DNA from: an uncultured Acidimicrobiia bacterium
GTDB lineage: Bacteria > Actinomycetota > Acidimicrobiia > Spongiisociales > UBA4744
Length of the DNA stretch: 64,000 bases
Reading direction: 5' to 3'
Assembly (NCBI GenBank): GCA_964383535.1
Contig: CAYLHS010000001.1
Location: 20,026-84,025, forward strand
Below, one piece after another: positions 29,779-49,408 of this stretch. Numbering within the stretch: the stretch's first letter is position 1; each line of letters starts with the position of its first letter. Below the pieces are notes generated by a model that was not told the origin of the DNA, did no database searches, and saw only the letters and a list, made by a program, of their open reading frames with translations. The translations under genes were made by a program, and so were the position numbers.

Positions 29779-29879
29779 CTTCTCCTCGCTGCTCGCCCCA
29801 AGGGTAGAAGGGTTGGTGAATGGTTGGAGAAGGCGAAAGACTTCAGAAGCGTGCAAAGGTGGCCGATGCCACTCACTGA

Positions 29880-40871: not shown

Positions 40872-42227
40872 ATGCAGCGCCGCATCTATGGACTCGAAAC
40901 CGAATACGGGGTCACGTGCACTCTCCGAGGGCAGCGGAGGCTGAGTCCCGATGAGGCCGCCCGCTACCTGTTCCGCAGAGTGGTGAGCTGGGGCAGATCC
41001 TCGAACGTGTTCCTCGAGAACGGCGCCCGGCTGTACCTCGATGTCGGAAGTCATCCCGAGTACGCGACACCGGAGTGCGACACCATCGGAGATCTCGTCG
41101 CAGCGGACAAGGCGGGTGAGCGGGTCCTGCACGAACTCGTCGGCGAAGCCCAGGCACGGCTTGGAGAAGAAGGAATCTCCGGAGAGATCTACCTGTTCAA
41201 GAACAACACCGACTCGGCAGGCAACTCGTACGGCTGTCATGAGAACTACCTCGTCAGAAGGGAAGCGAACTTCGCAGCGACCATCGACGCGCTTCTCCCG
41301 TTTCTGGTGACACGACAGATCTACACAGGTGCGGGGAAGCTGCTCCGGACCGCGCGGGGCGTTCGGTTCACGATCTCCCAGCGCGCCGAGCACGTCTGGG
41401 AGGGGGTGTCGTCCGCAACGACGCGCAGCCGCCCGATCGTCAACACGCGGGACGAACCCCACGCTGATGCCGCCATATTCCGACGACTGCACGTGATCGC
41501 AGGCGACTCGAACATGTCGGAACAGGTCACCTACACGAAAGTCGGTGTGGTGGGCGCGCTCCTCCAGATGCTCGAAGCCGGCAAGACGTTCAGAGCGCTG
41601 GATCTCGAGAATCCGATCAGGGCCATCAGAGAGATCAGCGCGGACCCGACATGCAGACGGCGTGTGCGCCTGGCAAACGGCCGTGAACTGTCTGCACTCG
41701 ACATCCAATGGGAGTACCTCGACGAGGTATCCCGATACGGCAGGCTCCATGGATTCCCCCCGTCGATCGAGGCCGCGGTCCGATACTGGGAACAGATGCT
41801 CGTCGGCATCGAAAAGGACCCGATGTCGCTCGCCGACCAACTCGACTGGGCGGCGAAGTGGAGCCTGATCGAGGCATACCGGAGCCGCCACGAGCTCTCG
41901 CTGTCGAATCCGAAGCTCGCAATGATGGATCTCGCCTACCACGACATCGATCCGGATCGTGGCCTCTATCACCTCTTGCTGCGCGCCGGGCGCATGCGTC
42001 GAGCAGTTGACGACGAGGCGATCCAACGCTTCACACTGGAACCTCCGACGACCACTCGAGCGAGACTGCGCGGGAGTTTCATCAAGGCAGCAAAGGCTGC
42101 CGGGCGTGACTTCACTGTGGACTGGGTCCATCTGAAGCTCAACGATCAAGCAAAACGCACGATCCTCTGCAAGGACCCGTTCGTACACACGGACAGGCGG
42201 GTGGAGAGACTGATCGAAGGCCTTTGA
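40872..42227 (+). CDS. pafA: Pup-protein ligase
   Basis: [17 protein letters not shown]...[32 protein letters not shown] is near-identical in pattern to mycobacterial PafA. Confidence 0.9.
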
Positions 42228-42273: not shown

Positions 42274-43182
42274 ATGCGACGCGTCATCGAACGGCTCTTG
42301 AATCTGCTCGCCTTCCTGCTCACTGCGGAACGGCCTGTCACTGCCGAGGAGATTCGGGTGACGGTGGCCGGATACGCGAACGAGTCCGACGAGGCGTTCC
42401 ACAGGATGTTCGAGCGGGACAAGGCGCTGCTTCGACGAATGGGCATACCCCTCGAGCTCAGAGCGACCGATGGCTGGGAGGTCGAGTACGGGTACGCGCT
42501 GCAGCCAGACGAGTATCAGCTCCCAGACCCGGATCTCAACGACGAAGAACGCGCAGCGTTGTGGCTTGCAGCTCAGGTCGTGCGCCTTGGGGGACAACCC
42601 GCGGGACCGGACGCCCTGCTCAAACTCGGAGGGTTGACAATGGCGGGGGGAGGCGAGCCATTGGCCGCCGATCTCGGGCTGGAGACCGGCGACCTGGAGA
42701 CCGCGTTTCACGCCGCGACCGAACGAAGAGAGTTGTCGTTCGACTACCACGGTCGAACCCGGACGGTGCAGCCCATGGGCATCCTCCACCAGCGGGGGCA
42801 CTGGTACCTCGTTGCTTTTGAAGCGGGCGTACAACGGTCTTTCAGAGTCGACAAGGCCGCGCGGCTGGTCCTGGGTGAGCGGGCCGGGGCCTTCACTCGG
42901 CCAAAGGGGTTCCGTCTGCGCGACGCCGTGCCGGTCGAGCCGTGGGCGATCGGTGAGGCGGACGTCGTCGCCAGGGTGCTGTTCGATCCCGACGCGGCAT
43001 GGTGGGCCAGACGCCAACTCACCGGTGGGGTCACCGAGCTCGACGACGGCTCACTCGAGGCCACAGTCACCGTTGCAAACCCCGACGCGTTCATCGGGTG
43101 GTTGTTGAGCTTCGAAGACAAGGCCGAGATCGTCGAGCCTCCGGAACTTCGGGCAATGCTCATCGAACGAGTACGCCAATGA
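42274..43182 (+). CDS. pafB: WYL-domain transcriptional regulator
   Basis: HTH + WYL architecture immediately after pafA. Confidence 0.8.
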   Translation: MRRVIERLLNLLAFLLTAERPVTAEEIRVTVAGYANESDEAFHRMFERDKALLRRMGIPLELRATDGWEVEYGYALQPDEYQLPDPDLNDEERAALWLAAQVVRLGGQPAGPDALLKLGGLTMAGGGEPLAADLGLETGDLETAFHAATERRELSFDYHGRTRTVQPMGILHQRGHWYLVAFEAGVQRSFRVDKAARLVLGERAGAFTRPKGFRLRDAVPVEPWAIGEADVVARVLFDPDAAWWARRQLTGGVTELDDGSLEATVTVANPDAFIGWLLSFEDKAEIVEPPELRAMLIERVRQ

Positions 43183-44096
43183 GCCGGACGGCGCAACGCC
43201 TGACGCGGATCCTCTCGATGGTCCCATGGGTGATCGCTCATCCGGGAGCGACCGTCACCGGCGTGTGCGAACGGTTCGGCTACACGAAAGACGAATTGAT
43301 CGCCGACCTCAACCTGGTGTTCGTCTGCGGACTGCCCGGGTACGGGCCCGGCGACCTGATGGTGGCATACGTCGAGGACGACGAAGTCGTCATCGACATG
43401 GCCGACTACTTCTCGCGAGCATTGCGGCTCAGTATGTCGGAAGCACTCGCTCTGCTCGCCGCGGCAGAAACCCTCATGGCGACCGATCAGGCGCCGCCCG
43501 CCCTCAGGAGCGCGGTGGTGAAGCTCACCCGGGTGCTCGGCATCGAGTCCGACGAGACGATCGCGATCGAGATCGACAGCGAGAGTTCGATCGTCACGAC
43601 ACTGCGCTCCGCCGCCGCGGAGGGACGCGTCGTCGACCTGACCTACACATCACTCTCCAAGGGAGAGACCACCAGACGGCTGATCGAGCCCTGGTCGGTC
43701 TTCACCACGCTGGGAAACTGGTATGTGTCCGCCTACTGCAGGACGGCACGGGCAGAGCGCGTGTTTCGCATGGATCGGATCCGCTCGGTCGAAGCGACGG
43801 GGGAGCGTTTCGCTCCCAATCCGGACCCACCTGCACCCGTGGTCCGATACACCCCGTCCGAGGACGACGTGCAGGCCACCATTCGCCTCGGACCGCGTGC
43901 CGCCTGGGTCGCCGACTACTACCCGGTCGACGTGATCGACACGGATCCTCTCACCGTCCGTTTCTCAACATCGGATGCCGGTGTCGCCGCCAGGCTGCTG
44001 GTACGACTGGGAGGTGACGCCGTCCTCGTGAAGGGCCCCGAAGTCCGCGAGGCGACGGCCTCACTGCGAAAACGCATCCTCACTAGATACGTGTGA
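43179..44096 (+). CDS. pafC: WYL-domain transcriptional regulator
   Basis: ATGA overlap with the pafB stop; start reset to MSRTAQRLTRILSMVPW. Confidence 0.8.
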   Translation: MSRTAQRLTRILSMVPWVIAHPGATVTGVCERFGYTKDELIADLNLVFVCGLPGYGPGDLMVAYVEDDEVVIDMADYFSRALRLSMSEALALLAAAETLMATDQAPPALRSAVVKLTRVLGIESDETIAIEIDSESSIVTTLRSAAAEGRVVDLTYTSLSKGETTRRLIEPWSVFTTLGNWYVSAYCRTARAERVFRMDRIRSVEATGERFAPNPDPPAPVVRYTPSEDDVQATIRLGPRAAWVADYYPVDVIDTDPLTVRFSTSDAGVAARLLVRLGGDAVLVKGPEVREATASLRKRILTRYV

Positions 44097-44172
44097 CCAT
44101 TTCGCATTAGTCACTACAGGGCGCAGCCGGCTGGACCGATACACGTGTCATGAACGGTGAGCGGAGCGCCGA

Positions 44173-44466
44173 ATGACCACTATCAAGACGACGTGCCAAC
44201 ACTGCGGTGACATCGAACTGCACCCCGACGATCTTGCACTCGAGCTGGACCCGACGGGTGACCAGGGGAGCTACCTCTTTGTGTGTCCCGAATGTGGAGA
44301 TTTGCAGCGACGCCCGGCAAACAACCGGGTCGTCAACGTCCTGCTCGCAACCGGCGTCAGCTACGACGTGATCGTGCCGGAGCCCGGACCAATCACCGAC
44401 GAGGAGATCTCCCGATTCGTCGACGCCCTCGACCGGGAAGAAGAGTTCTGGAGGATGCTCGCCTAG
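44173..44466 (+). CDS. zinc-ribbon protein (CxxC-x29-CxxC), hypothetical, between pafC and tatA
   Basis: MTTIKTTCQHCGDIELHPDD...FVCPECGDLQRRPANNRV...: 97 aa with an acidic C-terminus; a GAGCGGAG ribosome-binding site lies upstream. Confidence 0.5.
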   Translation: MTTIKTTCQHCGDIELHPDDLALELDPTGDQGSYLFVCPECGDLQRRPANNRVVNVLLATGVSYDVIVPEPGPITDEEISRFVDALDREEEFWRMLA

Positions 44467-44504: not shown

Positions 44505-44789
44505 GTGCTCTTCGATGTCAGCCCTTCCGAACTGATCGTCATCCTTCTCGTTGCCTTGATCGTGTTCGGACCGAAACGACTGCCCGAGATGGCCAGGAAA
44601 CTCTCGTCGATCGTACGCGAGATCCAGGGCGCCGCCGGCGAGCTGCAGCGTGGACTCGAAAAAGAAGTCCGGGAACTGACCGACCCGATCAGGGAAGCCA
44701 CGAAACCACTGCGGGAGCTGTCTGCTGCACCGGACACAGACGCTCAGGACCACTCCACGTCCGGGGACACACCTCCCGAAGATGAGTGA
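44505..44789 (+). CDS. tatA: twin-arginine translocase subunit TatA/E
   Basis: GTG start; a single TM helix ending in the hinge FGPKRLPE, then an amphipathic helix. Confidence 0.8.
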   Translation: MLFDVSPSELIVILLVALIVFGPKRLPEMARKLSSIVREIQGAAGELQRGLEKEVRELTDPIREATKPLRELSAAPDTDAQDHSTSGDTPPEDE

Positions 44790-45495
44790 GGACACGCCGC
44801 GTTCGGTCGTCGAGCATCTGGAGGAGCTTCGCTGGCGGCTCGTGAAGAGCGCAGTCGCCATCGCGATCGGGGCGATCGTCGCATTCATCTTCCGTGCGTG
44901 GATCTTCGACGCCCTGGCCCGGCCGTATCACCTCGCGCTCCCGGGGCAGGACCTGAACCAGTTCGAGGTGACCGAAGGGTTCTCAGTCGCGATGCGGCTG
45001 TCCATGTTCGGCGGACTCTTCCTCGCAAGCCCCGTCCTCTTCTATCAGGTGTGGGCATACATCAACCCCGCACTCACCAAGCGGGAGCGGAAGTGGACGG
45101 TTCCAATCATCTCGGCGCTCGTTCTGCTGTTCTCGGCCGGCGTCGCGTTCGGTTACTACATCCTCCCGCGAGGGCTGGTATTCCTCCTGGGGATTCAACC
45201 GGGGCTCAACGCGGTGATCGGGGCATCGGACTACTTCGGCCTCGCGCTGCGATTCTTGCTGGTCTTCGGTCTCGCCTTCGAGTTCCCCGTATTCATCTTC
45301 GCTGCGGCTGCCGCGGGCCTGGTCTCGTCTGAGAAACTCGGACAGGGGCGTCGCTGGGCCGTTCTGATCATCGTCATCGTCGGCGCGGTCGTGACCCCGA
45401 CAGGCGACCCCTTGACGCTCACTGCCCTCTCTGTTCCGCTCTACCTGTTGTACGAGGCGACCATCTGGGTCGTCAAGCTCGCCCTTCACAAATGA
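44782..45495 (+). CDS. tatC: twin-arginine translocase subunit TatC
   Basis: Six TM helices; LEELRWRL N-terminal motif. Confidence 0.85.
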   Translation: MSEDTPRSVVEHLEELRWRLVKSAVAIAIGAIVAFIFRAWIFDALARPYHLALPGQDLNQFEVTEGFSVAMRLSMFGGLFLASPVLFYQVWAYINPALTKRERKWTVPIISALVLLFSAGVAFGYYILPRGLVFLLGIQPGLNAVIGASDYFGLALRFLLVFGLAFEFPVFIFAAAAAGLVSSEKLGQGRRWAVLIIVIVGAVVTPTGDPLTLTALSVPLYLLYEATIWVVKLALHK

Positions 45496-47897
45496 CCGGG
45501 TTCGAGCTGGATCCCTTTCAGCGAGAGGCATCTCGCGCCATCGCATCGGGCGAATCGGTCGTTGTCACCGCCCCGACGGGCTCTGGAAAGACGCTCGTTG
45601 CGGAGTTCGCGATCCAGGGAGCGCTGGAACGCAAACGGAAGGCGTTCTACACCACACCCCTGAAGGCGCTCTCCAACCAGAAGTTCAACGATTTCGGCCG
45701 CCTGTACCCGGACGTCGGGCTGCTCACGGGCGACAACACGATCAACGGCAGCGCATCGCTTGTCGTGATGACGACGGAGGTGCTGAGGAACATGATCTAT
45801 GCGAGTTCGTCGGCCCTGGATGATCTCGACGTCGTGGTCCTCGACGAGGTGCACTACCTTCAGGATCCGGCCAGGGGAGCGGTTTGGGAGGAGATCATCG
45901 TCCACGCGCCACCTGGCGTGCAACTGGTCTGTCTCTCTGCGACCGTGTCCAATGCAGACGAGTTCGCCGCGTGGGTACGAAGCCGTAGAGGCCCAACGAG
46001 ACTCATCCAAGAAGATCGCCGCCCGGTACCCCTGGTGAACCTGTACGCCCTGAAAGACCGATGGGACGATGAAGTGCTCCTCGAGCGCATGTTCGCCGAA
46101 GCGGCACCACACCGGAGTATCGAATCCCGGGTCAGCGGCAGAAGGGCGGGACGGTACACAACCCCTCGGCGGAACGAGACCATCTCGGCGTTGGCGGCGA
46201 GGGAGATGCTACCCACCATCTACTTCATCTTCTCGAGAGCCGGTTGCGACGACGCGGCCCGGCGGCTCGTCCAGGCCGGAGCCCGTTTCACCAACCCGAC
46301 CGAGATCGAAGAGATACGAGCCGTAGCCGAGCGTCACACGGCCCATCTCGACCCTAGGGATCTCGTGGCGCTCGGCTACGACGAATGGGTGTACGGGCTC
46401 GAAGCGGGAATCGCGCCACATCACGCGGGCATGGTTCCTGCATTCAAAGAAGTGGTCGAAGAGCTGTTCGCTCGTGGGCTCGTGAAGGTGGTCTTTGCCA
46501 CCGAAACCCTGTCGCTCGGCATCAACATGCCCGCTCGGACCGTCGTCCTCGAAAGCTTGAGCAGATTCACGGGGGAGACGCACGAGCTTCTCCGTCCCGG
46601 TGACTACACGCAGCTGACCGGGCGTGCTGGGAGGAGGGGAATCGACGAGGTGGGATACGGTGTGGTGCTTCACTCGAGGTACGTACCGTTCGCCAGAGTC
46701 GCCGAACTCGCGCGTGCGGGATCACATGCGCTCTCGTCGAGTTTCCGTCCGTCCTACAACATGGCCGTCAATCTCATCGCGAACTATCCGCGCAAACGTG
46801 CCGAGCAGCTCCTCGGCGCGTCCTTCGGTCAGTACCTCGCGTCGAAGGGGATCGCATCGAAGCGGCGGCTCCTCACACGTCAAGTGCGGGAACTCGGTGA
46901 CCTTCGTGCAAAGGCGACGTGTGAGCGAGGGGACGTAGGCGAGTACGTGCGGCAGTTGCCGCACGCGGGCTCCTTCGATGTAGGGGATATCCTCGAAACC
47001 GTCGGAGGTCGCGGCATCGTCGTGAAACGTCGGCACGGGAAACGAGTCGAACTGGTGATGGTGATGGAGGATGGCCGGCTCTCGACATTGACGCCTCGCG
47101 TCTTTCGCGGCGCGCAGAAGATCGGCTGGATGGCTGTCGAGGATGCTCGCAGGATGACGACTGACGGCTCGTACAGGCGCCACGTGGGTCGTCGGATCGC
47201 TTCGGCCGTACGGCAACATCCGGTCGCCTCATGTCCCGACCGCGCCACCCACGTCGCCTCGTACCAGCGGCTGGCGAAGCTCGAACGAAGGATCGACCGC
47301 CTTCGCGAGGAACTCGAGCGAACGAGCGGTGGCCTGATCGACGAACTCGACCGAATCCTCACACTCCTGGGTGCGTTGGGCTACGTGAACGGATGGTCCC
47401 TCAGCGAGCAGGGTGAAAGGCTCAGATCGATCTACTCGGACACAGACCTGCTGCTCTGCGAAGCGATTCGAAACGGGCTGCTCGACGATCTCGAACCGGC
47501 CGAGATGGCATCACTGATCTCGATGACGGTGTACGAGGCCCGGCGGGCCGAGTCGGCAGTGCAAGAGTGGCCGACATTCAGCCTGTCGAGCCGAGGAGAG
47601 CGGCTGGAGTCGTTGTGGGAAGTGCTCGTCGATCGCGAGCAATCCCTGCGGCTGCCAAGATCACGCCCTCCGGAGAGGGGCTTCGTGGATGCCGCCTACC
47701 GGTGGGCATCTGGTGCCGATCTCGACGAACTGCCGGGCGTCACCGACGCGGGGGACTTCGTGCGAACGTCGCGCCAGCTACTCGACGTGCTGCGCCAGGT
47801 GCGCGACGCGATTCCCGCGTACAGAATCCCAATCAGTGAAGCAATCGGTGCGATCGATCGGGGCGTGGTGGCGGCCCCCCGGTACGAACATGAGTGA
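45492..47897 (+). CDS. helY: Ski2-like DEAD/DEAH-box RNA helicase
   Basis: Walker A APTGSGKT, DEVH box, SAT; 801 aa; positioned after tatC as in mycobacteria. Confidence 0.85.
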   Translation: MTGFELDPFQREASRAIASGESVVVTAPTGSGKTLVAEFAIQGALERKRKAFYTTPLKALSNQKFNDFGRLYPDVGLLTGDNTINGSASLVVMTTEVLRNMIYASSSALDDLDVVVLDEVHYLQDPARGAVWEEIIVHAPPGVQLVCLSATVSNADEFAAWVRSRRGPTRLIQEDRRPVPLVNLYALKDRWDDEVLLERMFAEAAPHRSIESRVSGRRAGRYTTPRRNETISALAAREMLPTIYFIFSRAGCDDAARRLVQAGARFTNPTEIEEIRAVAERHTAHLDPRDLVALGYDEWVYGLEAGIAPHHAGMVPAFKEVVEELFARGLVKVVFATETLSLGINMPARTVVLESLSRFTGETHELLRPGDYTQLTGRAGRRGIDEVGYGVVLHSRYVPFARVAELARAGSHALSSSFRPSYNMAVNLIANYPRKRAEQLLGASFGQYLASKGIASKRRLLTRQVRELGDLRAKATCERGDVGEYVRQLPHAGSFDVGDILETVGGRGIVVKRRHGKRVELVMVMEDGRLSTLTPRVFRGAQKIGWMAVEDARRMTTDGSYRRHVGRRIASAVRQHPVASCPDRATHVASYQRLAKLERRIDRLREELERTSGGLIDELDRILTLLGALGYVNGWSLSEQGERLRSIYSDTDLLLCEAIRNGLLDDLEPAEMASLISMTVYEARRAESAVQEWPTFSLSSRGERLESLWEVLVDREQSLRLPRSRPPERGFVDAAYRWASGADLDELPGVTDAGDFVRTSRQLLDVLRQVRDAIPAYRIPISEAIGAIDRGVVAAPRYEHE

Positions 47898-48783
47898 GTG
47901 GCTCGTCCTCGTCAACCCTCTCGCCGGAAGAGGAAGGCACGCCGCTCGACGGACACGCCGGGCCCTCGAGGTGCACGGAATCTCGGCGGACGTTCGAGTG
48001 CCCACGACACCATCGGCGATGCGGGAAGCTGTCGACGCCGGTGTCGCCGAAGGGCGGACACATTTCGTTGCGGTTGGTGGTGATGGAACCGCCAATCTCA
48101 TGGCCGACCAGCTGCTCGACCACGCGTGGTCGACGCCACCGGTGCTCGGGCTTCTCCCCGGAGGGTCCGGCTCGGACCTCGCCAGATCGTTCGACATCCC
48201 TCAGCACATCGAGGGCGCGGTGGCGGCGCTGCATGGCGACGCTACGTCCACGGTGGACGTAGGGGTGCTGGAGGGTCGGTGGGGATCGAGACGGTTTGTG
48301 AATTGCGCCGAGTCGGGCCTCACGGCCGCCGTCCTCCATCGCTCGCTCGGGCTGCCCAGGTGGCTGGGATCGGTCAAGTACCACCTCGCTCTCGGACTCG
48401 TGTACCCGAAGGTGCGGCTCGCCACCATGACGGTTCGCGCGGGCGAGCACGAGTTCCAGGGGAGTTCGCTTCTCGCAGTGTTCGCCAACGCCCGGTACTT
48501 CGCAGGTGGTTGGAACATCGCTCCGGACGCCTCTGTGTCGGACGGACAGTTCGACATCCAGGTGTTCGAGGCAACGAAACGGGACATTCCACGCCTGTGG
48601 TGGCTCGCGAAGTCGGGCGCCCATGTGGGCGAGCCGGGCGTTCATCACTTCGCTGCCGAGACCTTCACGGTGGAGGTTTCGGATGGGTGGCCGGTAGAGG
48701 CCGACGGGGAGTACTTCGGTGAGGGATCGATGCGAGGCACCATTCTTCGATCTGCCCTTTCGATCAAGATCCCTGACTCGTAG
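47890..48783 (+). CDS. diacylglycerol-kinase-family lipid kinase (YegS/DagK-like)
   Basis: Start MSEWLVLVNP overlaps the helY 3' end by 8 nt; DAGKc motif GGDGT. Confidence 0.75.
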   Translation: MSEWLVLVNPLAGRGRHAARRTRRALEVHGISADVRVPTTPSAMREAVDAGVAEGRTHFVAVGGDGTANLMADQLLDHAWSTPPVLGLLPGGSGSDLARSFDIPQHIEGAVAALHGDATSTVDVGVLEGRWGSRRFVNCAESGLTAAVLHRSLGLPRWLGSVKYHLALGLVYPKVRLATMTVRAGEHEFQGSSLLAVFANARYFAGGWNIAPDASVSDGQFDIQVFEATKRDIPRLWWLAKSGAHVGEPGVHHFAAETFTVEVSDGWPVEADGEYFGEGSMRGTILRSALSIKIPDS

Positions 48784-48838
48784 AAAGCTCTTCGCAAACG
48801 TTTCACCACACTTCGACAGGAGTGGTTATACTCTCGCC

Positions 48839-48857
48839 GCCCCTCCGGCGGAGGGGC
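48839..48857. other. GC-rich hairpin (GCCCCTCC-ggc-GGAGGGGC) between dagK-like gene and the acidic Cys4 protein gene
   Basis: 8-bp perfect GC stem with a 3-nt loop, 55 nt after the upstream stop and 30 nt before the next start codon; no U-tract. Confidence 0.35.
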
Positions 48858-48886
48858 AGGGTGATTCCGGAGACAGGGAACTCGAG

Positions 48887-49408
48887 ATGGATCGCGACAC
48901 CTTCGACGGCGTAGACGACGAACTCGAATACGAGGACGTCGACGCACCGGACGACCTCGATGACCTCGACGAAGAGGGCTCTGACGACATCGACGCGTTC
49001 GCAGATACAGAGGACGATGAAGACGACGCAGCCGGCCTGGACTTGGATAGTCTGGGACTCGATCTCGAAGAAGGCTTCGGCGAAGCGAGTACCAGCAGCG
49101 TCGACGAAGACGACGACGAAGACGACGACGAAGGCGACGAGGACGACGCGGCGGCCGAGGAGAACGAGGAAGCCCTGGAAGAACTCGAAGCGGAGGAGCT
49201 CGAACTGCTCGAGGACGAGGTCGCCGAAACGCTTCTCCTCGATGAAGCGGCGGAACTCCGGGCCATCCGGCGAGCCGAACTCACACTCGACACAGACGCC
49301 GAGAGCATCCGGGGAGACGAGTTCGTGTGCCAGTCGTGTTTCTTGGTCAAGCGCACGAGCCAGCTCGCCAACAAGCGCAGGCTAATCTGCAAAGACTGTG
49401 CCGGTTGA
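48887..49408 (+). CDS. highly acidic protein with C-terminal Cys4 motif (DUF4193-like; family assignment is from memory)
   Basis: GGAGACAGGGA ribosome-binding site; about 120 aa of D/E-rich low complexity, then FVCQSCFLVKRTSQLANKRRLICKDCAG*. Confidence 0.5.
   Translation: MDRDTFDGVDDELEYEDVDAPDDLDDLDEEGSDDIDAFADTEDDEDDAAGLDLDSLGLDLEEGFGEASTSSVDEDDDEDDDEGDEDDAAAEENEEALEELEAEELELLEDEVAETLLLDEAAELRAIRRAELTLDTDAESIRGDEFVCQSCFLVKRTSQLANKRRLICKDCAG

Follow-up and report, generated by a model that had tools for sequence, protein, structure and literature searches.

Between pafC of the Pup-proteasome locus and tatA of the twin-arginine translocation (Tat) genes, the 64,000-nucleotide (nt) stretch of an uncultured Acidimicrobiia bacterium analysed here (contig CAYLHS010000001.1; hereafter the window, in whose positions all coordinates are given) carries an open reading frame (ORF) of 97 amino acids (aa), which we call X. 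X is a genuine gene under purifying selection. The sequence upstream of it strongly supports a promoter of its own that belongs to the sigma-28 (FliA/WhiG) class, and the gene order in relatives strongly supports a tighter linkage of X to tatA than to pafC. Both the locus and the promoter class are already known; what is new is the constant position of X at the pafBC/tatAC junction in several lineages, together with a sigma-28-type promoter.

The initial annotation had described X as a 97-aa frame with its own ribosome-binding site between pafC and tatA, and this description held. The frame opens with ATG (protein sequence MTTIKTTCQHCGDIELHPDDLALELDPTGDQGSYLFVCPECGDLQRRPANNRVVNVLLATGVSYDVIVPEPGPITDEEISRFVDALDREEEFWRMLA), a GGAG stands 6 nt upstream of it, and Pfam confirmed the identity of the neighbors. 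A word-indexed search returned 261 homologues at E ≤ 1e-3 with identities of up to 91%, nearly all of them 95−100 aa long and with the N-terminus MTTIKTTC in common. A profile search across 1.84 billion cluster representatives extended the family to 1,222 clusters (50% identity) at E ≤ 1e-3 and 233 at E ≤ 1e-10. Furthermore, 10 public contigs have a called gene for a protein identical to X, and the G+C content at third codon positions (GC3) of X, 0.78, is comparable to that of the adjoining genes. Most codon differences between relatives are silent: 26 synonymous and 5 non-synonymous changes separate X from its counterpart in L001 (individual loci of relatives are denoted by L numbers), and the synonymous to non-synonymous counts against the nearest relatives are 26:5, 26:6, 28:9, and 34:10. 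A spurious ORF, one of the outcomes that the initial annotation had named as refuting it, or a wrongly called start would have the small size of the gene as its only argument. The conservation data exclude this reading, to which we assign a negligible probability: there are hundreds of full-length homologues with a common conserved start, the differences to L001 are predominantly synonymous, the ribosome-binding site and promoter are conserved, and the structural model of X is confident.

Relatives were collected at two levels. Scanning a single genome for each GTDB species yielded 251 stretches with an X relative, the best 80 of which are metagenome-assembled genomes (MAGs) of Acidimicrobiia (clade 1). 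Members of the more distant sub-families (clade 2) come from look-ups together with a metagenome scan (80 loci). Lineage labels are those of the NCBI record titles.

To describe the spacer between pafC and X, we aligned the 100 nt upstream of X from 81 sequences, anchored on a CGA. Three blocks stand out, namely CT[T/A]CAG, then [G/A]CCGAT[A] after exactly 15 nt, and, 36−48 nt further on, the start codon with GCGGAG in front of it. The C, G, and A of the -10-like element are invariant in 81/81 sequences, though by construction of the anchor; independent support comes from the enrichment over background given below. In the window, the promoter reads CTACAG-N15-ACCGATAC (44114−44142), and its -10-like element ends 30 nt before the ATG of X. 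The exact form CTWCAG-N15-RCCGAT has 2 matches in the 64-kb window, vs 0.05 expected, and in 51 of 90 loci (80 of the 90 from clade 1) it occurs once only, on the plus strand and always 5' of X. The strict motif was present in 101 of 150 distinct upstream regions (background 0.0012 per 100 nt), and a looser version, T[ACT][AC]A-N15/16-[GA][CT]CGA[TAC], in 124 of the same 150 (background 0.014 per 100 nt). Clade 2 carries at the same position CTAAAG, CTCAAG, GTCAAG, or TTCAAG, then 14−15 nt, then GCCGAT(A/G) or GCCGAA; L086, L095−L101, and L133 are among the examples with a perfect TAAA-N15-GCCGATAC/A. The motif is retained in L103 and L104, where neither pafC nor tatA is adjacent to X, and in L088 it lies inside the 3' end of the pafC coding sequence.

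The published sigma-28 consensus consists of a -35 TAAA and a -10 GCCGATAA (PMC8325347). For the WhiG factors of Actinomycetota, the consensus is T(A/C)AA-N16-GCCGATAA for WhiG2 and CTCA-N16-17-GCCGAACT for WhiG1, the central CGA being the most conserved part (PMC12871210). We took as the mark of a sigma-28/WhiG promoter a -35 that reads T(A/C)AA or CTCA and is separated by about 16 nt from a -10 of GCCGA(T/A)A with its central CGA, at a distance of no more than 200 nt from the start codon (PMC12871210). The sequence upstream of X agrees with this description: both CTWCAG-N15-RCCGATA and the TAAAG/TCAAG-N14/15-GCCGAT variants match the -35, the spacer of about 16 nt, and the invariant-CGA -10 of predicted and validated target promoters (PMC12871210, PMC8325347). 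The start site of X and its sigma dependence are predicted from sequence. Neither paper mentions X, and the text of the WhiG preprint (PMC12871210) holds no match for zinc, tatA, Acidimicrobi-, or Nitriliruptor-; the lineages that carry X apparently lie outside the analyses of both.

Scans for three other kinds of element were negative around X. The RecA-NDp (PafBC) motif TGTCRGTG-N8-TANNNT has no match near X; when 2 mismatches are allowed, the whole window contains 10 matches, where 14 would be expected. A sigma-70 consensus scan of 42−46 kb gave no sigma-70-like site around X. Since an Rfam scan of 43800−44800 found no RNA family, the conserved pafC-X spacer does not correspond to any riboswitch or leader already described.

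Two side observations lend support to the promoter reading. Besides the copy before X, the window has a single exact CTWCAG-N15-RCCGAT, located at 29841−29867 (+), 12 nt 5' of a 59-aa ORF (29880−30059, +; MERGLTFKCTRCRAAPAVVKKGRKTFLCPRCASDLMWHDMVDSVTEAFVEDETPEVGSV). The predicted product has a CxxC-x15-CxxC pattern and an acidic tail, and it scores above the Pfam cut-off for zf-FPG_IleRS (28.0 vs 21.3 bits). A putative two-transmembrane ORF of 106 aa (30069−30389, +) begins 10 nt past it. A search of metagenome contigs for relatives of the 59-aa ORF came up empty, and no called gene is recorded for it.

In several clade-2 loci, opposite-strand PAS/GAF sensor histidine kinases and a GAF-like protein are encoded between pafC and X and carry a sigma-28-like motif of their own. 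These motifs diverge from the X promoter, so that the spacer would form a bidirectional sigma-28-type promoter region in those lineages.

We then scored gene adjacency in the relatives, counting pafC as adjacent within 600 nt 5' of X and tatA within 800 nt 3' of X. The initial annotation had suggested a check of neighborhood conservation, and in clade 1 the position of X is indeed conserved: among the evaluable loci, pafC is adjacent in 72 of 77 and tatA in 67 of 72. Median gaps in this clade are 87 nt between pafC and X (never less than about 71 nt) and 113 nt between X and tatA. In clade 2, tatA is adjacent in 50 of 55 loci, and pafC is adjacent in 29 of 49, farther off in 11, and not seen in 9; these 9 loci have X without pafBC within 1.5−6 kb 5' of it. 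The clade-2 pafC/X boundary is thus broken in 20 of 49 loci, often through opposite-strand genes. Pooled over both clades, the X-tatA junction is kept in 117 of 127 loci and the pafC-X junction in 101 of 126.

The individual arrangements illustrate this pattern. In Acidimicrobiales, the order is pafBC, an S26 peptidase gene, an opposite-strand gene, X, tatA, tatC, and helY. Egibacter rhizosphaerae (CP036402) has a fused pafBC, X, nfeD, a band-7 gene, a gene for a 93-aa membrane protein, tatA, and tatC, and one metagenome contig repeats this arrangement around X. Unclassified Actinomycetota have pafBC, opposite-strand sensor kinases, X, a gene for a membrane protein of 75−106 aa (protein Y), tatA, tatC, and helY. 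In L025, L042, L057, L085, and L089, X is still next to pafC although the locus has tatAC elsewhere or not at all; L025, L042, and L057 (Acidimicrobiia/Acidimicrobiaceae) have neither tatA nor tatC at the locus, and helY follows pafC and X directly. In L088, X starts 1 nt past the pafC stop, and in L104 and L162 it occurs without either neighbor. The overall order dop-pup-prcBA-pafABC-tatAC-helY-dagK-DUF4193 is kept throughout.

Two further observations concern these neighborhoods. In L039, X (+, 339−629) is convergent with pafC (-, 719−1633) and pafB (-, 1648−2559), which represents a local inversion or an assembly artifact. Protein Y, encoded directly 5' of tatA in several lineages, has an N-terminal transmembrane helix followed by a charged helix and belongs to no Pfam family. 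Where nfeD and the band-7 gene are inserted after X, it keeps its place with tatA; the window lacks it.

These arrangements bear on how X came to its position. In the window, the genes dop-pup-prcB-prcA-pafA-pafB-pafC and tatA-tatC-helY have the same order and orientation as in the mycobacterial-type locus; the window differs by the addition of X and its sigma-28-type promoter at the pafC/tatA junction, and some lineages add Y before tatA. The adjacency of pafC and tatA in the mycobacterial-type locus, which the initial annotation had assumed, agrees with the legend of a Rhodococcus locus, whose abbreviation list gives pafC (DNA-binding protein), then tatA, tatC, and hel, and names no gene between pafC and tatA (PMC6498646). 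In M. tuberculosis, Rv2095c and Rv2094c are consecutive locus tags. A literature search turned up no publication that connects pafC and tatA with a zinc-ribbon gene. The further proposal that X is a lineage-specific insertion was not borne out, as the family spans the Acidimicrobiia including Acidimicrobiales, Egibacter rhizosphaerae, and other Actinomycetota MAGs in the same neighborhood. X is a long-standing member of the synteny block in the sampled non-mycobacterial lineages (Acidimicrobiia, Egibacter, and unclassified MAGs), and it is no less likely that X is ancestral and was lost from the mycobacterial type than that it was inserted in one lineage.

Within the window, the 38-nt gap between X and tatA contains no terminator-like site or hairpin, as judged by a terminator scan of 42−46 kb and a hairpin analysis. 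The downstream genes overlap one another in a string that starts 38 nt past X and ends with dagK. Because of this short, hairpin-free gap and the overlaps, X is probably the promoter-proximal gene of an X-tatA-tatC-helY-dagK unit, and in the simplest reading the sigma-28-type promoter serves all five genes. We infer that the Pup-proteasome/pafBC string ends before X, although read-through from pafC into X may occur. An insertion into the Pup-proteasome operon, as first suggested, is at odds with the conserved promoter of X, which in L088 lies within the end of pafC.

At the pafC stop, the window has an imperfect inverted repeat, GTGACCATT-tcgc-ATTAGTCAC, which could be a hairpin at the end of the pafBC transcript or an operator. 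Repeats occur at the same place in L007−L016 and L020 (GGACTATT-N4-AATAGTCC) and in L036/L047/L067 (TAGGGTCG..CGACCTA). The arms vary by clade yet stay palindromic; the repeat is not universal, and the anchoring of the alignment is imperfect here. On the other side of X, long GC-rich hairpins, some with T runs, lie in the first 70 nt after the X stop in L090, L106, L108, and L112, with fold z-scores down to -5 in this set. The clade of the window has no such hairpins.

X encodes a small, soluble, acidic protein with an isoelectric point (pI) of 4.21 and 19 D/E vs 7 K/R residues. The acidic tail noted in the initial annotation is present, with 8 D/E vs 3 K/R among the last 27 residues; the reported CxxC-x29-CxxC spacing needs correction to CxxC-x26-CxxC, with cysteines at positions 8, 11, 38, and 41. 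The family as a whole is acidic (median pI 4.5; 94% of members below 5.5), which would argue against nucleic-acid binding and for protein binding. Its conserved elements are the CxxCG knuckle, the CPxC knuckle, a [KR]-P-A-[DNE] turn, and a hydrophobic helix. Across all sub-families, I4, C8, C11, G12, Y34, F36, C38, P39, C41, A49, L57, G61, and V62 are invariant or nearly so. In the C-terminal part, clade 1 shows no variation at P73, I74, T75, E78, and F82, and outside the clade of the window the corresponding motif is P-LT-DDLLDFH-LL--DDWF.

Structure prediction, another check suggested at the outset, gave a confident fold. AlphaFold2 (AF2) models were built independently for X of the window (on 30 sequences) and for a 35%-identical family member (on 68 sequences), with mean predicted local distance difference test (pLDDT) values of 83.8 and 86.8, respectively, and identical topology. 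Five strands with both knuckles (residues 4−49) are followed by a helix (51−60), a sixth strand, a linker of lower confidence, and one or two C-terminal amphipathic helices. The models place the knuckles at the hairpin turns between strands b1/b2 and b4/b5. The N-terminal domain would thus be a helix-capped C4 zinc-ribbon beta domain with predicted metal binding.

Database searches gave only generic resemblances. Pfam and NCBIfam scans of X, 10 distant members, and all 47 members of alignment A2 produced generic zinc-ribbon matches only, all of them sub-threshold: the best Pfam match of X reached 15.6 bits (cut-off 33.2), DUF6510 14.7 bits (cut-off 26.4), and NCBIfam HVO_0649 20.6 bits (cut-off 70). 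DUF6510 is the most extended match, found in 20 of the 47 family members with a best E of 7e-5, under the cut-off. A sequence profile search of the PDB returned nothing significant (best E 0.07), and Foldseek gave no informative fold (best E 0.036). X matches neither Pfam TatA_B_E nor TatC and has no hydrophobic segment, as a Tat component would. The proteasome-docking ends GQYL/HbYX and the Pup-type ends GGQ/E are, by inspection, absent from its C-terminus. X does not qualify as a ribbon of the TFIIS/RPA12 type, which would call for a significant profile match and an RSADE acidic hairpin between the knuckles; a weak resemblance to RPA12/TFIIS was rejected, with RPA12 C-terminal ribbons reaching only E 0.2−0.3.

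Some database entries call for comment. Apparent fusions of X to a PafC-like WYL segment or to TatA-like, YbeY-like, or other sequence (P0164, P0200, P0254, P0259, and P0268) were not used, since their sequences suggest gene calls that are frameshifted or chimeric. P0093, a homologue with a 10-aa N-terminal extension, carries the precomputed Pfam assignment PF28055.1, which was not reproduced in our Pfam scan of P0093 and appears on no other listed homologue.

Like the generic C4 zinc-ribbon or rubredoxin-knuckle proteins (Pfam DUF6510, DUF7560, and HVO_2753-like; NCBIfam HVO_0649), X is a standalone protein of about 100 aa with two CxxC knuckles on beta hairpins, and the weak DUF6510 matches span most of the N-terminal domain. 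Those models, whose families are of unknown function, lack the helix-capped N-terminal domain, the linker, and the C-terminal helix (PIT-EEI / LT-DDLLDFH) of X. PA2021 (PDB 1ywy), itself uncharacterized, and PH/PTB-like beta-sandwich-plus-helix domains gave twilight-zone scores with 11−12% identity and have no metal site in common with X. The resemblance to RsrA-type zinc-binding anti-sigma (ZAS) factors, CsfB/Gin, and FlgM is functional only, in that X is small, acidic, and cytoplasmic, has cysteine pairs, and stands behind an alternative-sigma promoter; no sequence or fold match to these families was found. X differs from ZAS factors in lacking HxxxCxxC, a zf-HC2-type Pfam match, and a helical anti-sigma domain, its model being rich in beta structure. 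The zinc-ribbon fold class is already known; the X family itself, without a name or a solved relative, is new.

What stays most constant with X is the promoter class, then tatA, then pafC, and on this ranking we put first, and hold tentatively, the reading that X is a gene of a sigma-28 programme that would be functionally coupled to the Tat genes and encode a partner-binding adaptor. More specifically, the protein would work by binding another protein, not nucleic acid or a substrate. The Tat machinery would be the partner in best agreement with the linkage data, and X would serve as a cytoplasmic accessory or regulator of Tat, deployed under a sigma-28-type programme. The co-directional adjacency of X to tatA and tatC is the context expected of a Tat-linked accessory. 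The descriptive side of this proposal is well supported, the link to Tat is one of context, and the partner-binding role, with Tat as the partner, is the weakest part; several findings weigh against the whole. X has no transmembrane segment and, by Pfam, no similarity to TatA, TatB, or TatC. The nfeD and band-7 genes lie between X and tatA in Egibacter and L089, and no tatA is found 3' of X in L025, L039, L042, L057, L103−L105, L125, and L135. A strong hairpin directly follows X in about 21% of loci and is terminator-like in L090, L106, L108, and L112, so that X is probably monocistronic there. Finally, the pafBC-tatAC-helY order is an old synteny block, so that the position of X may be inherited and not functional.

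It is possible, if on the improbable side, that the function of X is unrelated both to its neighbors and to sigma-28 logic, for instance that of a small metal- or redox-binding protein retained in a stable block. The CxxCG/CPxC knuckles are rubredoxin-like, weak rubrerythrin-like and rubredoxin-type matches were obtained, homology and fold searches gave nothing informative, and the gene order from dop to DUF4193 is conserved throughout. The promoter class is nevertheless conserved across the sampled clades, and the adjacency to tatA survives many rearrangements, which together argue for a regulated, context-linked use of X. We consider it rather doubtful that X regulates a sigma-28/WhiG circuit, for example through feedback or an anti-sigma-like action on the very sigma factor whose promoter drives it, with its position being inherited synteny. 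In favor of this, the promoter is the most invariant companion of X; it persists in L103 and L104 without an adjacent pafC or tatA, and also at loci with an apparent terminator of X. The adjoining opposite-strand sensor kinases carry divergent sigma-28-like motifs, which fits the published prediction that WhiG targets are mostly regulators and signaling proteins (PMC12871210). X is small and acidic, has predicted zinc-type cysteine pairs, and ends in a helix on a flexible linker. Such a build is common in sigma-binding proteins such as RsrA, CsfB/Gin, and FlgM. Set against this, X lacks the ZAS motif, FlgM is not among its Pfam matches, and its beta-rich predicted fold is unlike known anti-sigma domains. 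Moreover, the target of a sigma factor is not thereby its regulator, and the 92% adjacency to tatA would be left unexplained.

An accessory of PafBC or of the Pup-proteasome, as proposed in the initial annotation, would modulate the WYL-domain activator or its turnover. The position directly 3' of pafC in 101 of 126 evaluable loci speaks for such a role, as do the 1-nt distance in L088 and the loci in which X remains beside pafBC with tatAC displaced (Egibacter, L089) or missing (L025, L042, L057); in principle, an acidic protein could also mimic DNA or serve as an anti-activator toward a regulator that binds DNA or single-stranded DNA. We regard this role as unlikely. X has a sigma-28-type promoter in place of operon continuity, the RecA-NDp motif is absent near X with window counts at or under chance, and the C-terminus has neither a proteasome-docking nor a Pup-type end. 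Furthermore, of the two junctions it is that with pafC which is broken most often, frequently by opposite-strand genes (20 of 49 clade-2 loci, vs 50 of 55 that keep X with tatA), and 9 loci have X with no pafBC in the upstream 1.5−6 kb.

The coordinates of X, its upstream elements, and the neighboring genes are collected in the table. Upstream of the genes listed there, dop, pup, prcB, and prcA each overlap by 4 nt, followed by gaps of 18 nt to pafA and of 46 nt to pafB. The DUF4193 gene lies about 5 kb 3' of X in nearly all clade-1 loci, and its product in the window combines a terminal CxxC...CxxC pattern (FVCQSCFL...LICKDCAG) with a poly-acidic, D/E-rich extension at the N-terminus that is unusually long, at about 140 residues. 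A 770-aa ORF (39876−42188, -) runs antisense to the 3' part of prcB, prcA, and pafA; we take it to be a shadow ORF of high-GC DNA because its GC3 is only 0.66.

Table. Features of the pafC-X-tatA region of the window and related elements at other loci (coordinates with an L number refer to that locus).
Feature	Position	Strand	Basis or remark
pafA	40872-42227	+	Pfam
pafB (WYL + WCX)	42274-43182	+	Pfam; 4-nt overlap with pafC
pafC (HTH_PafC + WYL + WCX)	43179-44096	+	Pfam; ends 76 nt 5' of X
Imperfect inverted repeat	44093-44114	.	Overlaps pafC stop, abuts -35-like element
-35-like element CTACAG (clade consensus CTWCAG)	44114-44119	+	Logo positions -21 to -16 at 0.9-1.6 bits, fixed spacing
-10-like element (consensus GCCGATA), predicted sigma-28/WhiG type	44135-44142	+	Enrichment over background; kept in clade 2
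Shine-Dalgarno GGAG	44163-44166	+	GCGGAG kept across loci
X coding sequence, acidic protein with predicted C4 zinc ribbon, unnamed family	44173-44466	+	ORF, homologues, purifying selection, AF2
First predicted metal knuckle C8-Q-H-C11, then G12 (CxxCG)	44194-44205	+	C8, C11, G12 invariant in alignments A1, A2, A3, A5
Second predicted metal knuckle C38-P-E-C41 (CPxC)	44284-44295	+	C38, P39, C41 (nearly) invariant in all alignments
C-terminal amphipathic acidic helix, residues 76-96, PIT-EEI--F--AL motif	44398-44460	+	AF2 helix 76-96
tatA/B-family gene	44505-44789	+	Pfam TatA_B_E, NCBIfam; 38 nt 3' of X
tatC	44782-45495	+	Pfam TatC; 8-nt overlap with tatA
helY-type Ski2-like helicase gene	45492-47897	+	Pfam DEAD, Helicase_C, DSHCT; 4-nt overlap with tatC
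dagK, diacylglycerol-kinase-like gene (DAGK_cat + YegS_C)	47890-48783	+	Pfam; 8-nt overlap with helY
DUF4193 gene	48719-49408	+	Pfam
Protein Y genes	L085 10019-10300; L086 7361-7681; L087 7367-7633; L088 7402-7629; L089 5556-5792; L090 5196-5465		
Sigma-28-like motifs TCAA/TAAA-N15/16-GCCGAT	About 100-290 nt 5' of X in L095, L097-L100, L103, L104, L133, L143, L144, L152	-	

The pafABC-tatAC-helY order is a well-conserved and unexplained synteny of Actinomycetota, to which several early-branching lineages add a conserved gene, X, and a promoter boundary. This boundary would separate the Pup-proteasome/pafBC string from the Tat/helY string. Should X prove to be merely an ordinary small protein, the result would still correct the annotation, in that X is a real gene with a promoter of its own and not an insertion into an operon. 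A bolder possibility, which we consider a long shot, is that a sigma-28-family factor of early-branching Actinomycetota has in X its missing post-translational regulator, a zinc-ribbon protein that would be made from a sigma-28-type promoter, bind the sigma factor, and have its activity or level coupled to the adjacent Tat export genes. If true, this would amount to an export or assembly checkpoint like that of FlgM, built from different parts, and it could help explain the stability of the pafBC-tatAC junction. Research on the WhiG/FliA-family sigma factors of Actinomycetota seeks to establish their targets outside Streptomyces, and X, conserved across very different lineages, is a candidate core target in taxa that neither PMC12871210 nor PMC8325347 mentions. 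As it stands, X represents a large zinc-ribbon family with a cultured carrier in Egibacter rhizosphaerae.

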